A DNA stretch of 64,000 bases, from IMG/VR virus record IMGVR_UViG_3300028048_000073, positions 62,660 to 126,659 of that record. One strand, 5' to 3'. Source of the stretch: a virus. Each line of letters begins with the position of its first letter. The first letter of the stretch is position 1. Positions 24,364-30,334 of this stretch are shown piece by piece. The position numbers and the translations under genes were made by a program. The notes under the pieces were generated by a model. The model saw only the letters and a list, made by a program, of their open reading frames with translations. It searched no databases and had not been told where the DNA came from.

Positions 24364-24921
24364 TTACTGCTTTGACATACTGCGATATTTTTCTTTTCCT
24401 TTTTTTATATCTTCAAAAACCTGCTCAATATTTACGGGAAAGCAGTTATGTGAATCTACACCTGCATGGTAACAATAAGGTATATTAGAAAAACTATCTT
24501 TCTGGTGAGTATGCCCATGAAGATTCCAAACATTGTCAAAGGTCATATTCCCAACAACTGTAGGATAATGGGTACAAAGAAAAGCTATTTTTTTATGTTT
24601 TAAGCGATAACCAAACTGAATTTCTGCTGTATTGGAAAGCTGCTTAATTGCTTCTATCTTTTTATCTCCATCGTGATTCCCAATAGCATAATGAATCTGC
24701 CCATTTAATCTGCTAACCATCTCAAGACTTTGTTCCTTATTGGTTCCAAGAAACACATCGCCAAGATTATATACGATATCATCTTTTTGAACAATGCTGT
24801 TCCACCTTTCTATGAGTGCTTCATTCATTTCTTGCACTGATTCAAACCCACGGGCTTTCCATATGAAATCTTTATCGTGATTAAAATGCTAATGAAGATC
24901 TGATGTAAACCAGATCGCCAT
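24364..24921 (-). CDS. Calcineurin-like metallophosphoesterase with an in-frame TAG at 24889-24891. It is either a pseudogene or translated by readthrough
   Basis: Reading upstream from the GTG at 24837 gives MAIWFTSDLH-TAG-HFNHDKDFIWKARGFESVQEMNEALIERWNSIV...GNHD...GHTH. All phosphoesterase motifs are present, with the DxH motif upstream of the stop. A ribosome-binding site precedes the ATG at 24921. Confidence 0.6.
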
Positions 24922-24934
24922 AAAATCATCTCCT

Positions 24935-25468
24935 TTATATTAATATTTTTAAATATGTCGTTTCATTTGCTTCATTGTGGTATAAGACGGCTCCCGCATC
25001 ATTAATTACATTAAATCCTTCTTCATTTGTAGGCATTGTAAAATTTTTCTGCATATTATAAATTGCAACATCAGGAACTCTTTCTCTTCCAATTCTTGTT
25101 TTATTCTGTTGAATGCATCTTGTAACGGGGGTTTTAAAGACAACAGCTTCTACAATAATGTTGTTTAGATTTAATTTTTTGAGAACTTTTGCTCTTGACT
25201 TTGCATTAATGTGGGTGGCATCTGCAATAACAATGTCAACATCGTCGTCATTCAAATAGTTCTGAATATTAGAAATGTAATTTTTAAAAACATCAGCTTC
25301 CTTTGAAAAATATCCTTCGCCTTCATCAACTAATGCAAAACGAATTACATCACGGGAAACTATCACGATATGGCGTCCCTGTCTTGTTTGGTCTTTTACA
25401 TACTCTCGTGCCCAAGTTGACTTGCCGCTGCCAGCTATTCCCACAAGCATTAGTAATCTCTTATTCAT
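24935..25468 (-). CDS. Polynucleotide 5'-kinase (T4 Pnk kinase-domain-like P-loop kinase)
   Basis: LLMLVGIAGSGKSTWAREYV matches the T4 Pnk N-terminus (ILTIGCPGSGKSTWAREF). Confidence 0.7.
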   Translation of the reverse strand: MNKRLLMLVGIAGSGKSTWAREYVKDQTRQGRHIVIVSRDVIRFALVDEGEGYFSKEADVFKNYISNIQNYLNDDDVDIVIADATHINAKSRAKVLKKLNLNNIIVEAVVFKTPVTRCIQQNKTRIGRERVPDVAIYNMQKNFTMPTNEEGFNVINDAGAVLYHNEANETTYLKILI

Positions 25469-25985
25469 TTATGATACCCCTTTTCTTTTTTAAATCACAA
25501 CAGAAAGTGTTATTTGCGTTCCAACACTTACCATTTTTATTATAGCGGCAGCTGATGTGTCCGCATCCAGTGAGCTGAGCTATCGGAACCCTTTGACCAT
25601 CTACAAATCTGCCAAGAATAAATTCTTCACAAAAATCTTCATAAGAGTAGCTACCAAAAGGACGAACCTCCGCATGATTAATTTCTTCCTTACAGTGGTA
25701 GCACCAAAGAGATTTGAGATGACCTGGTTCTCTGAATCTTCCGTTTCGTCTGGGGAGTGACATAGACCTGTTCCCGCATTTTGTGCAATAGAAATCACTA
25801 ATCTTAACATCGGCTTTTTTACTCAACTGCAACAACCTTCTTTCTTTACTTTCTATATATATTATATCATAAAAAATAAAAAAAATCAAGAAGTTATAAA
25901 AAACTTCTTGATAAAAGTTATTATTTAAATAAAATTTTCTCTTATTTTGCTTTTCTTTCATTTTGAAAAAACTCTTCCATGTCAA
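25461..25985 (-). CDS. Cys-rich zinc-finger protein, hypothetical
   Basis: CTKCGN...CYHCKEE...CGHISC motifs. Confidence 0.3.
   Translation of the reverse strand: MTWKSFFKMKEKQNKRKFYLNNNFYQEVFYNFLIFFIFYDIIYIESKERRLLQLSKKADVKISDFYCTKCGNRSMSLPRRNGRFREPGHLKSLWCYHCKEEINHAEVRPFGSYSYEDFCEEFILGRFVDGQRVPIAQLTGCGHISCRYNKNGKCWNANNTFCCDLKKKRGIINE
25847..25889 (-). promoter_or_regulatory. Conserved early promoter
   Basis: The reverse complement reads TTGATT-N17-TATAAT-ATATATAGAAAG. Confidence 0.55.
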
Positions 25986-26304
25986 ACCATCTATCCTCGA
26001 TTATATTACCGATTGTCGTAACGCGTGAACCCCAACCGTCAGATTTAATACGACAATACTTGCCTTTTAAATCCTCCCAATTTGTAACACCTACGACGTC
26101 CATTATCTTCATCATAGCAACTAAGCCCATGCCATTTTCAGACTTGAACTCTTTTGCTCCGAGATAGCCATGTCCTATACAATATCCGCCGATACTAACG
26201 CCTATGCCGCCGCCTTCGACTGTTATGTAAAAAGTTAAACAGCCGTGGTCAGCCATTGTCAATCTTACATCTGTTATTTTTACGTTGATAATCTCCATTT
26301 TCAT
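25942..26304 (-). CDS. hypothetical protein
   Basis: 120-aa ORF. Confidence 0.3.
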   Translation of the reverse strand: MKMEIINVKITDVRLTMADHGCLTFYITVEGGGIGVSIGGYCIGHGYLGAKEFKSENGMGLVAMMKIMDVVGVTNWEDLKGKYCRIKSDGWGSRVTTIGNIIEDRWFDMEEFFQNERKAK

Positions 26305-28003: not shown

Positions 28004-28275
28004 TCTTGCACTCCTTTGATATTCTTTTCAGCTTCATCAGTACAAGGAATGATCTCAATCACGCCGAGGATTATCATCTCGGGCACGGTTACTGTAAATT
28101 TACAGTTTTCAGGCTTTTTAACCCCCTCAATCGCCATCTGTGATAAGCTCGCTGCACCATCCCAGTACCATATTCTGCGAACGTTGGTCATTGTCACTTC
28201 ACTGCCGTTGCGCTCCTTTATGTTCCCGGCAAAGACACCTGCACGATCTGCTCTTACAATGTAATACTTTTCCAT
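27991..28275 (-). CDS. hypothetical protein
   Basis: 94-aa ORF. Confidence 0.35.
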   Translation of the reverse strand: MEKYYIVRADRAGVFAGNIKERNGSEVTMTNVRRIWYWDGAASLSQMAIEGVKKPENCKFTVTVPEMIILGVIEIIPCTDEAEKNIKGVQEWKI

Positions 28276-28277
28276 AT

Positions 28278-29396
28278 TTAAAACTCCTTTTTAATTTTTT
28301 TGTCAATTTCAAACATCTTAATAAACTTCTTTGTTGATAAATTATTTATGAATTGTTGTTCTTTATTATCATAACAAGCAAAATAATAAGCGGGATTTTT
28401 ATTATTTTTTATATGTAAAGCAAAATCCTTTTTTGAATCTTCTGGATGCTTCATTTTCCAACACTCAACTTCAAATTTTATTTGTGAAAGCTCTTTAGAG
28501 TTATCTGATAGTACAGCTCTAATGCTATCAAAATAATTTGTATATTGAGAAAAATAAGCTAAAAATTCATCTGCTTCATTTGCTTTTATGATGTCTATTG
28601 CTCTTTCAAGAGTAAGAACTCCATTGTTTGCGACATGATGTAAGCGGACATAGGATTCTGTTTTTATTTTTACTCGATTTCCTTGAACGTCTTTTACAAC
28701 AATTCCCTCATGCTCGTCTGACATTTTTTGAACAATAGCATTACAATCCATTAGAGATTGAATAGGATAATATGTAGGGCGCGGTATCTCAGGAAGAAAA
28801 CGAACAGGAATAATAGCTTCTTGCAATGTTTCCATATCGCGCGCGGAAAGAAGATAAATTTTGGGCTCAGGGTAATTAATCACTATTCGATTCCAAGGTG
28901 ATACAAGCTCAAAAGTATAGCATTTTTTCTTATTAAAAAGGTTATAATTGTCCATATCTGTTATATTTCTATATGCTATATCAAAAAGTTCTCCGAAAGT
29001 TTTAATTACAGAACCATCACCAAGAGTAGCCTTGTAAGCATCAATAGTGCCATTTGTTGAAAGATGCCATTCTCCGCGGGCATACCAAAGTGACATTAAA
29101 GAACCATCTATTTTTTCTGTAGCATATGCGTGGTCCCAATCAATTGCTGCCGCATACCACTCTCCTACGTTAAAAAATTTTTTGAACGCCATCCTGACTA
29201 CTCTAAAACCATCACGAGAATCAAGAATTATACCTCTTGCTTCACAACAAATTTCTTCATCAAAATCAGAAGATAATTGATTATATTTAAAAAGATAAAA
29301 ACCATCATCTTCTGAGATTTTTAAGCAATAAGGGGGCTGTTGTAAAAGTTCATACCAGTTAGGGTGAGATTGTATAAACTCTTGTATTTTTAACAT
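28278..29396 (-). CDS. RNA ligase, Rnl1 (T4 RnlA)-like
   Basis: Nucleotidyltransferase motif I TEKIDGSL (KxDG), motif IV EHEGIVVKD, motif V NRVKIKTESY. Confidence 0.75.
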   Translation of the reverse strand: MLKIQEFIQSHPNWYELLQQPPYCLKISEDDGFYLFKYNQLSSDFDEEICCEARGIILDSRDGFRVVRMAFKKFFNVGEWYAAAIDWDHAYATEKIDGSLMSLWYARGEWHLSTNGTIDAYKATLGDGSVIKTFGELFDIAYRNITDMDNYNLFNKKKCYTFELVSPWNRIVINYPEPKIYLLSARDMETLQEAIIPVRFLPEIPRPTYYPIQSLMDCNAIVQKMSDEHEGIVVKDVQGNRVKIKTESYVRLHHVANNGVLTLERAIDIIKANEADEFLAYFSQYTNYFDSIRAVLSDNSKELSQIKFEVECWKMKHPEDSKKDFALHIKNNKNPAYYFACYDNKEQQFINNLSTKKFIKMFEIDKKIKKEF

Positions 29397-29578
29397 CTTT
29401 TATCCCTCCTCAGGAAGTTCATTTACAATTCTTTCCGCTTCAAAGAAATGTGATGCAATAGTTTCAGTATCCATTTCTATATCATTCTGTCGGACTATTG
29501 CTTCAAATAGAAAATGCTCATAAAATAACTGTGTAAGTATATCTTTATCAACTATACGTGTTTCCATAAAAATACTCC

Positions 29579-30334
29579 TTATACCTTTAAAACGATGTCT
29601 GCAAAAATGTTATAAATATTTTCTGCCATTGCATCGAACTTTTCGACATCAATGGGATGTGTTTCAATATATTTCTCAATATCTGGGACAATGAGGCTGG
29701 CGTCCGCCACACAAGTATCATAATCATTAATATCAAATACTTCTGCAAATTTGATATCATTGATTTTTGCGGGAGTTACAAAACACTCTTCAAGTGGAGT
29801 TCCATCAATAACGCTTGCGCAGAAGTATGCTAAACGTACATAATGATATACCTTTTTGTAAGTTCTTTCTTTTGGGTTCTCAAAGGTTTTCATCCACCCC
29901 AGACAAGATTTTAATAACTTTGGAGTATTCATCCTACCGATTTCTTCTCTTTTTTCATAAATATGCTCATTATAAAAATCTTCATAAAGAGGATTGATAT
30001 AATAAAAAGGAGAAAAAATCATTTCAATATGAGTGGGGGAAGCGCTACATAGACCTTTTACAAAATTGCGGATATCGGTATAGGTAACTTTATTACCCTC
30101 AATTTCCTCCTCTTTGCTTAAAAAACGCTCATTCTTAAAGATGTCTTGGATAGAGGGGATTATAACAACACGAACATCAACATCTGAACTATTGGTAAAA
30201 GAACCATAATTCATACTTCCATATGGAAAAACTCCAAATACTCTTTTTTCACCGAACTCATGTACAGCTCGATAGTAATTATAAAAGACATCTTTGTAAA
30301 TTTTTTCCTTTAACTCTTTTGAATAATTAATCAT
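29579..30334 (-). CDS. Nucleotidyltransferase-fold (Pol-beta superfamily) protein
   Basis: GVFPYGSMNYGSFTNSSDVDVRVVI matches the hG[GS]...DhDh signature. Confidence 0.5.
   Translation of the reverse strand: MINYSKELKEKIYKDVFYNYYRAVHEFGEKRVFGVFPYGSMNYGSFTNSSDVDVRVVIIPSIQDIFKNERFLSKEEEIEGNKVTYTDIRNFVKGLCSASPTHIEMIFSPFYYINPLYEDFYNEHIYEKREEIGRMNTPKLLKSCLGWMKTFENPKERTYKKVYHYVRLAYFCASVIDGTPLEECFVTPAKINDIKFAEVFDINDYDTCVADASLIVPDIEKYIETHPIDVEKFDAMAENIYNIFADIVLKV

Follow-up and report, generated by a model that had tools for sequence, protein, structure and literature searches.

The DNA analysed here is a 64,000-nucleotide stretch (the window; position 1 is its first nucleotide) of the virus record IMGVR_UViG_3300028048_000073, and it probably belongs to a larger phage genome of ~145 kb. 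No relative of the window was found among cultured phages searched at the DNA level, whereas an identical copy of the locus described below is present in the Logan assembly L007. Between 23.7 and 36.6 kb every gene lies on the minus strand, in AT-rich phage sequence of 31-36% GC. Positions 24364-30334 of this region hold genes for a calcineurin-like metallophosphoesterase (MPE), a polynucleotide 5'-kinase (Pnk), a T4 Rnl1-type RNA ligase, and a nucleotidyltransferase of the RlaP family, a set that points to RNA repair. The MPE gene carries an in-frame TAG codon within its metal-binding motif I, and this TAG is conserved among related phages.

Enzymes encoded at the locus

The kinase gene (24935-25468, minus strand) encodes a 177-residue protein that matches AAA_33 (6.5e-17) and phrog_505, a family named "polynucleotide kinase", and its best NCBIfam match is the Pnkp kinase module TIGR04075 (8.7e-13). 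Its matches in the PDB include T4 Pnk (1LY1, 5e-6) and the Pnkp kinase of Clostridium thermocellum (4GP7, 1e-5). The P-loop reads GIAGSGKST, and the catalytic Asp and Arg residues D40, R43, and R125 align with D35, R38, and R126 of T4. A HAD (DxDxT) 3'-phosphatase domain was looked for at the C-terminus and none was found, leaving a kinase domain alone.

The T4 Rnl1-type ATP-dependent RNA ligase (28278-29396, minus strand) matches PF09511 (2.5e-12), phrog_562 (2e-48), and TIGR02308 (1.2e-20), and aligns with T4 Rnl1 (2C5U) across residues 33-329 (E 2e-14). Its motifs I (EKIDGS, with K95 as the nucleophile), III (FELVSP), IV (EGIVVK), and V (VKIKTE) align to K99, E159, E227/G228, and K240/K242 of T4 Rnl1, and overall it is ~27-30% identical to the Rnl1 of T4-like phages. 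The Pfam cut-off is passed (47.6 vs. 28.3 bits) and the NCBIfam equivalog cut-off of TIGR02308 is missed (74 vs. 242 bits); by these scores the protein is a member of the PF09511 family, not a T4 RnlA equivalog. The protein is Rnl1-type and not a DNA ligase; the window has a separate NAD-dependent DNA ligase gene (14862-16862). The closest Rnl1 homologs outside this phage group (L001-L003 in IMG/VR, 51-53% identity) lie inside tRNA gene arrays, and because these loci have Rnl1 only, with no further gene in common with the cluster, they are of no use for synteny.

The gene at 29579-30334 (minus strand) encodes a 251-residue Pol-beta nucleotidyltransferase, which scores 26.5 bits against PF10127 (gathering cut-off 23), the Pfam family "RlaP, RNA repair pathway DNA polymerase beta family". 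It lies 183 nucleotides upstream of the ligase gene with one 55-residue open reading frame (ORF) between them, a spacing that is kept in the related contigs L014-L017. An exhaustive search recovered 1234 RlaP relatives. In an alignment of 50 of these, G39, S40, D51, D53, D87, and E104 are invariant, and they comprise the GS motif at 39-40 and the RlaP catalytic carboxylates D51, D53, and D87. A profile of the 50 relatives matched T4 NrdC.11, a protein listed as an RlaP (PMC12776372), with an hhalign probability of 93.5% (E 2.3e-7). The AlphaFold2 (AF2) model (pLDDT, the predicted local distance difference test, 93.6) predicts a nucleotidyltransferase core followed by a C-terminal helical domain, the architecture described for the crystal structure of PfRlaP (PMC12776372).

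PMC7824862 and PMC12776372 credit the name RlaP to Burroughs and Aravind (2016), who chose it because the gene is linked to those of RNA ligases. The RlaPs of Pseudomonas extend an RNA 3'-OH by one or two nucleoside monophosphates (NMPs) (Carruthers, Fatma and Huang, 2025 preprint; PMC12776372); the enzymes prefer damaged RNA ends, and the addition can rescue aminoacylation of over-trimmed tRNA. The preliminary description of this DNA had placed a kinase, an Rnl1-type ligase, and a Pol-beta nucleotidyltransferase at these positions, in agreement with the families and catalytic motifs found here; its term "uncharacterised" for the nucleotidyltransferase no longer applies, as the family has both a name and biochemistry. 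The link to RNA repair that it had proposed for this protein is borne out by the PF10127 match, the homology to NrdC.11, and the adjacent ligase. A match to an antibiotic nucleotidyltransferase or an MNT was what it had named as speaking against such a link. A fold search with the model gave kanamycin nucleotidyltransferase as the best match (template-modeling score, TM, 0.45; 15% identity), along with HalB and 3C18, and sequence and profile searches of the PDB gave a weak MNT match (E 0.044) and otherwise noise. None of these PDB matches, by sequence, profile, or fold, was an RlaP structure, and the best fold matches are therefore generic two-domain nucleotidyltransferases. At such identity and TM values, membership in an antibiotic-resistance or MNT family was rejected.

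The MPE gene (24364-24921, minus strand) matches phrog_547 (4e-38) and Metallophos_2. Its motifs D8/H10, G54-D55, G81-N82-H83, H118, and G136-H137-T138-H139 are invariant or nearly so in homologs. Metal-binding motif I is missing from the ORF read under the standard code (24364-24837). The true start is ATG 24921, with a strong AAGGAG ribosome-binding site just after the kinase stop codon, and the frame from this ATG reads MAIWFTSDLH-TAG-HFNHDKDF..., with the TAG at codon 11, such that the protein gains motif I only when the ribosome gets beyond this codon. The product predicted for a hop over the TAG exceeds the two Pfam Metallophos cut-offs, with its match beginning at profile position 1, whereas the truncated ORF lies below them. 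The preliminary description had a separate phosphoesterase standing in place of the T4 HAD phosphatase; this holds insofar as the protein matches phrog_547 and the kinase has no HAD domain, while the standard ORF it was given is too short and the gene starts at ATG 24921. The in-frame stop was missed in that description.

A conserved in-frame TAG in the phosphoesterase gene

The TAG (24889-24891) is flanked by identical His codons, forming CAT TAG CAT at 24886-24894 on the minus strand within motif I. An 8-base-pair hairpin (GATCTGGT/ATCAGATC, 24897-24916, minus strand) precedes it, with its 3' end 2 nucleotides before the first CAT. We found CAT TAG CAT in 10 contigs, representing seven alleles from at least five studies (ENA, Logan, and JGI assemblies). 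The carriers include phages with a very different C-terminal half of the MPE (63-70% identity), as well as L027, in which gyrB is 54% and Pnk 59% identical to those of the window. A sequencing error or a recent nonsense mutation was rejected, given the recurrence of the TAG in these contigs and several studies and the synonymous divergence around the site.

One account of the codon would be that it is a true stop, leaving the MPE dead or N-terminally truncated and the module either without a working 3'-healing enzyme or dependent on that of the host. Standard-code gene callers do report a 154-157-residue ORF without motif I, and TAG ends other ORFs of the window, as it does the MPE gene of L008-L010 at the position of the terminal TAA in L011. 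The variation downstream of the TAG is nevertheless that of a coding sequence: the first possible in-frame start after it is codon 29 (GTA in L027) or codon 32, so codons 12-28 can be reached from no in-frame start, yet within codons 14-31 the seven alleles show synonymous variation at nine codons and non-synonymous variation at two. Because the variation is mostly synonymous and there is no in-frame start before codon 29, the stretch after the TAG is translated. Further downstream, the window and L008 differ at 34 synonymous and 16 non-synonymous positions in codons 32-183. A true stop is also at odds with the strong ribosome-binding site ahead of ATG 24921, with none ahead of codon 29 or 32, and with the persistence of the allele at the gyrB and Pnk divergence of L027 while the downstream codons remain under purifying selection. 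Taken together, we regard termination at this TAG as unlikely.

The site itself stands out as an invariant block. Codons 3-13, which comprise 33 nucleotides including both CAT TAG CAT and the hairpin, are invariant in all seven alleles. None of the nine degenerate codons in this block varies, compared with 9 of 18 directly downstream (p ~0.002, a rough estimate), and TAG-less homologs do not have the hairpin. In addition, exactly these two codons are missing from 118 of 120 homologs, and the insertion is restricted to two TAG-bearing clusters. The motif across the 120 homologs is S-D-x-H-[FLYI]-x-H, and removal of the two codons from the TAG-bearing genes yields the commonest form, SDLHFNHDK. 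One other homolog, with SDLHLWLNH, is off pattern and may hold a different two-residue insertion. No sense-codon or co-varying version of the two-codon insert was found in IMG/VR, and the same search of JGI metagenomes returned only one further CAT TAG CAT allele.

Gene callers either cut the MPE gene short or wrongly assign genetic code 15 to it. P0001 and P0002 in the databases show a "Q" at this site, which is the code-15 translation of TAG and does not reflect a Gln codon. The MPE gene of L008-L010 ends with TAG at codon 185, the position of TAA in L011; gene calling under code 15 extends it by 12 spurious residues, across a downstream promoter (TTGACA-17-TATAAT). As far as we could find, the conserved recoded stop of this MPE gene has not been described in the literature.

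Possible routes past the TAG

A general reassignment of TAG served by a phage suppressor tRNA was considered and, for this window, rejected. TAG ends 3 of the about 63 ORFs of the window, and one in-frame TAG is present among them. One other TAG joins two long frames (244 + 737 residues); the 737-residue ORF is a complete standalone glycyl-radical enzyme that phrog_21327 covers alone, and the apparent fusion is thus two proteins. The window has ~17 tRNA genes, one of which (49391-49466, minus strand) is called "tRNA-Pyl(cta)" by ARAGORN, a call that needs a mismatched 6-base-pair anticodon stem. The Rfam covariance alignment of the same positions gives a fully canonical tRNA-Arg with anticodon UCU, and its D-loop AGCGGAAA is the same as in the adjacent tRNA-Arg(ACG). 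Judged by this alignment, "tRNA-Pyl(cta)" is a tool artifact that would wrongly point to amber suppression. Neither the window nor the related loci that were scanned contained a canonical CUA anticodon. A weak tRNA match at 51466-51537 (minus strand, 41 bits), whose anticodon stem pairs badly and which ARAGORN does not call, is possibly a degenerate tRNA.

The UAG might instead be read through at this site, where a suppressor tRNA of phage or host origin, or a near-cognate tRNA, would insert a residue to give H-X-H and so tie the phosphatase level to suppressor activity. Readthrough is an established way past a leaky stop. The phage is rich in tRNAs, the window covers 64 kb of a genome of probably ~145 kb, and gene callers already render the site as Q under code 15. 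Moreover, one tRNA of the window is non-canonical: the type-I tRNA at 53883-53957 (minus strand) has an 8-nucleotide anticodon loop (CAUUAGAG), A1-U72, and G73, and is no canonical Leu tRNA. ARAGORN labels it "tRNA-?(Stop|Leu)(ta)", and the Rfam model aligns it with anticodon UAG and one inserted base. Expanded anticodon loops promote frameshifting and hopping. On the other hand, the only CUA call proved to be tRNA-Arg(UCU), and TAG serves as a normal stop in the window, including the one behind which the standalone 737-residue ORF lies. Readthrough would also place two extra residues directly behind the metal ligand His10, a feature seen in no other homolog, and it does not explain why the pre-stop codon is repeated after the stop, an arrangement with a chance rate of ~3-4% (in the window, a stop lies between identical codons at 4 of 105 comparable sites). 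Overall, we find readthrough somewhat doubtful and rank it second among the routes.

The route that we think most likely, and propose tentatively, is a 6-nucleotide "stop-hop" of peptidyl-tRNA-His from one CAU to the next. With UAG in the A site, the peptidyl-tRNA would unpair from the CAU of codon 10 and re-pair with the CAU 6 nucleotides downstream, after which decoding would resume at UUU, such that 9 nucleotides encode one His. The resulting N-terminus, MAIWFTSDLHFNHDK, would be two residues shorter than that of the readthrough product and would restore the family consensus SDLHFNHDK. The invariant 8-base-pair hairpin upstream might drive the forward movement. We favor the hop because the flanking codons match, whereas readthrough gives no reason for the second CAT. 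In E. coli, a UAG followed by C terminates weakly.

Several observations weigh against a hop. The local RNA fold around the TAG shows no significant stability (z = -1.09), and the take-off and landing codons show no co-variation, every allele having CAT TAG CAT. The tRNA with the 8-nucleotide loop (53883-53957) could conceivably act as a suppressor. According to the 2016 recoding review PMC5009743, in-frame stop-hopping works in synthetic constructs, as Weiss et al. showed in 1987 for stops placed between matched codons, but is not known to occur in nature (see also 10.1101/2024.12.09.627546).

The closest comparison for a stop-hop is the bypass in T4 gene 60, considered along with the synthetic stop-hops. 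Shared features are matched take-off and landing codons, UAG directly 3' of the take-off codon, and a hairpin 5' of it. As in T4 gene 60, the inserted nucleotides interrupt a highly conserved motif, here a metal-binding one, skipping them would restore the ancestral protein, and the phage region is rich in homing endonucleases. By contrast, the gap here is 3 nucleotides (a 6-nucleotide shift) rather than 50 and contains no obvious Shine-Dalgarno element, the nascent peptide has just 10 residues, the TAG-bearing allele has no homing endonuclease gene attached, and the hop is a prediction from sequence.

In T4 gene 60, the bypass insert shields the DNA against MobA, the homing endonuclease encoded next to it (10.1101/2022.08.31.505936). 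By analogy, the 6-nucleotide insert might owe its presence to the disruption of a homing endonuclease target, and would then parallel the T4 gene 60/MobA cassette in miniature. In L013, from a related phage, a GIY-YIG homing endonuclease gene (1155-1829) lies between Pnk and a TAG-less, 5'-diverged MPE allele, suggesting homing-driven mosaicism at the Pnk-MPE junction. The window contains at least four homing-endonuclease-like genes (HNH, GIY-YIG, and phrog_4645; 8318-9343, 11846-12880, 13254-14192, and 19304-20293), interspersed with replication genes (primase, helicase, NAD ligase, and gyrase).

Gene linkage and probable role in RNA repair

Consensus scans for terminators and promoters, which give matches and no proof, suggest two adjacent minus-strand transcription units. 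The start of the first is likely marked by a terminator-like hairpin (30764-30737) and a promoter-like site (30719-30691; TTGAAA-17-TGnTATAAT, with a strong extended -10) ahead of a 107-residue ORF. This unit would run from ~30690 to 25942 and comprise the 107-residue ORF, RlaP, the 55-residue ORF, Rnl1, the insertion described below, and a phrog_30930 protein. A second terminator-like hairpin (25912-25885), overlapping a promoter-like site (25889-25861), likely forms the boundary between this sealing unit and a healing unit, which would extend from ~25860 to 24364 with a zinc-ribbon protein, Pnk, and MPE; both elements again match consensus only, on the minus strand.

All of the smaller genes in these units are likewise on the minus strand. 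The 107-residue ORF (30337-30660) stops 2 nucleotides ahead of RlaP and matches phrog_13073 (4.5e-11); it matched no Pfam or NCBIfam family and is kept at 90% identity in the relative L014. The 55-residue ORF between RlaP and the ligase (29400-29567) matched no family in the library scans, and in L014 its position is kept and its sequence weakly so (49%). The 120-residue phrog_30930 protein (25942-26304) directly follows the ligase in L014, at 88% identity. The CxxC zinc-ribbon protein (25461-25832; phrog_1257, 6e-12) overlaps the kinase start, and its own start is probably a TTG at 25832 or 25826. The zinc-ribbon protein, which is coupled to Pnk, and the 107- and 55-residue ORFs are conserved partners of the repair genes. 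Ahead of the cluster lie genes for an 801-residue protein with a major-vault-protein shoulder or SPFH-like region (30777-33182) and for the 737-residue pyruvate-formate-lyase-like glycyl radical enzyme (33640-35853; PF02901, 2e-191), both conserved in relatives.

A 2-kb block on the minus strand (26305-28277) encodes DUF6948, a Gly/Asp/Tyr-rich 235-residue ORF, a small membrane ORF, and two zinc-ribbon paralogs, and the sequence at 26-28 kb has 43% GC, compared with 31-34% in its flanks. The block is missing from L014, where phrog_30930 directly follows the ligase, and it is therefore an insertion and not a core part of the system. The two zinc-ribbon ORFs within it (26301-26962, phrog_22543) overlap and look like tandem paralogs. 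The GC-rich small Cys- and Gly-rich ORFs of the preliminary description are thus real as a GC-rich block, and yet 26305-28277 is no conserved part of the cluster; the conserved small gene is the zinc ribbon at 25461-25832.

The linkage of the repair genes was traced through relatives at increasing distance. Most genes of the close relative represented by L014-L017 show 85-98% identity (58% for RlaP and 63% for MPE), and the order is 107-residue ORF, RlaP, 55-residue ORF, Rnl1, phrog_30930, zinc ribbon, Pnk, and MPE. Among distant relatives, L021 and L024 (contigs of 145-149 kb) keep the triad of zinc ribbon, Pnk, and MPE, with a zinc-ribbon ORF of 49-57% identity directly upstream. In these phages the nearby ligase is of the PF09414 type and RlaP is absent; a 252-residue ORF beside the ligase of L024 was considered as RlaP and rejected. 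In an IMG/VR survey that used a 9-sequence alignment as the query, 80 loci with RlaP homologs had Pnk (43), MPE (34), or an RNA ligase (21) within 6 kb. The arrangement is therefore not novel, contrary to the preliminary description, and on this linkage kinase, MPE, ligase, and RlaP appear as a recurrent, modular phage RNA-repair kit. The same description had proposed a cluster for RNA end healing and sealing, with which the family assignments, motifs, and conserved linkage all accord.

We consider that the region probably is a phage module for the repair of breaks in RNA, specifically tRNA: its families, motifs, and linkage are seen directly, and its substrates and order of steps are drawn from T4, bacterial Pnkp, and Pseudomonas RlaP. 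In such a pathway, MPE would open and remove the 2',3' or 3' phosphate and Pnk would phosphorylate the 5' end. If the nuclease had also trimmed a nucleotide from the 5' half, as RloC does, RlaP would add one or two NMPs to the 3'-OH, and Rnl1 would seal the break last. An active MPE would in addition need the ribosome to get past the conserved UAG at codon 11. The RNA-end role of the MPE is assigned here because of its gene linkage. Iyer et al. predicted that RlaP restores nucleotides lost to RloC-type nucleases (PMC7824862).

Some evidence counts against a repair role for these proteins. The PF10127 match of RlaP is modest (E 6e-6, covering the N-terminal two-thirds only), and 18 of the 50 RlaP relatives match PF10127 at E<0.001; the protein represents a divergent RlaP subfamily whose C-terminal part lies outside the Pfam model. 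For the MPE, the best Foldseek matches are aq_1665, MJ0936, LpxH, and Mre11, and the nearest structures are aq_1665, of unknown function, and the MJ0936 phosphodiesterase. A PDB sequence search with the MPE at E<=1 returned no Pnkp or lambda phosphatase chain, and by sequence the MPE is of a different subfamily from these. In cultured Staphylococcus and Bacillus phages, MPE homologs lie away from Pnk and ligase genes.

These points leave room for other functions: rather than chiefly countering host tRNA nucleases, the genes could serve the phage's own RNAs, for example by joining halves of tRNA-Leu(UAA), or the MPE could degrade cyclic-nucleotide defense signals. The former would suit the tRNA-Leu(UAA) gene at 53153-53284 (minus strand), in which a 49-nucleotide insert lies exactly between U34 and A35 (ACGGA-CUU[49 nt]AAAA-UCCGU). 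The insert matched no Rfam ribozyme or group I intron, and its length falls far below that of a group I intron; L111 has a tRNA in which this anticodon arm is uninterrupted. The insert-bearing gene could be a pseudogene, a decoy, or a healing and sealing substrate; a splicing endonuclease, on the other hand, was not found. Phage calcineurin-like phosphodiesterases have been proposed to act against defense signaling (PMC7824862), and the MPE homologs located away from RNA-repair genes in cultured phages would agree with a function outside repair, whereas the tight linkage of zinc ribbon, Pnk, and MPE with a nearby ligase across diverged phages fits end healing better than signal degradation, and the characterized preference of RlaP is for damaged RNA ends (PMC12776372). 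We consider these other functions decidedly unlikely.

Compared with known repair systems, the predicted tRNA-repair module shares with T4 (Pnkp encoded by pseT, Rnl1 by gene 63, and NrdC.11) an Rnl1-family ligase, the kinase fold with its Asp and Arg residues, a transferase homologous to NrdC.11, and the logic of healing both ends before sealing. It differs in that the 3'-phosphatase is a separate binuclear metallophosphoesterase rather than a HAD domain fused to the kinase, in that the repair genes are clustered rather than scattered, and in the size of RlaP (251 residues, vs. 336 in NrdC.11). The combination of kinase, metallophosphoesterase, and RNA ligase, with the order kinase-phosphatase, recalls the bacterial Pnkp-Hen1 and Pnkp1-Rnl-Hen1 systems (PMC2190708, PMC3675462, PMC4411300), in which a metallophosphoesterase is a known 3'-healing enzyme (bacterial Pnkp; PMC2190708, PMC3675462). 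Unlike in bacterial Pnkp, however, the activities here are on separate polypeptides, the MPE is of another subfamily, and the ligase is Rnl1-type; library scans of the ORFs at 23.7-36.6 kb found no methyltransferase family that could stand for the Hen1 methyltransferase.

The third comparison is with the Pseudomonas RtcB-RlaP-RtcA system (PMC12776372) and the RlaP and ligase sets of jumbo phages (PMC7824862), which likewise have RlaP beside an RNA ligase and the three catalytic Asp residues. According to Iyer et al., RlaP follows RNA ligases in its distribution among jumbo phages, and calcineurin-like 3'-phosphatases were noted in the RNA-repair sets of a few of them (PMC7824862). The role proposed for RlaP operons, in which nucleotides taken away by "smart" ribotoxins are put back ahead of sealing, may by analogy apply here as well. 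In contrast to RtcB-RlaP-RtcA, RlaP is here paired with Rnl1, a 5'-phosphate ligase that is chemically compatible with the 3'-OH product of RlaP. Since Rnl1 needs the 3'-OH that RlaP makes, the two fit together without the chemical mismatch that was pointed out for RlaP and RtcB (PMC12776372).

Overall, the cluster adds one more case of uncultured phages, probably of the rumen or gut, that build tRNA-repair kits from interchangeable parts, with Rnl1 standing here where distant relatives have a PF09414 ligase. The compact pair of RlaP and Rnl1 should be chemically simpler to reconstitute than RlaP with RtcB. The locus also offers a lesson for gene calling, as the ARAGORN "tRNA-Pyl(cta)" would have strengthened the wrong conclusion of the code-15 call. 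The conserved UAG matters more than the cluster itself: whatever the mechanism, it points to a phage RNA-repair enzyme that is made only by recoding, at a site that forms a short cassette of 33 invariant nucleotides. If the hop is true, this would be the first natural stop-hop, a minimal bypassing system, and a second link of bypassing to homing-endonuclease conflict.

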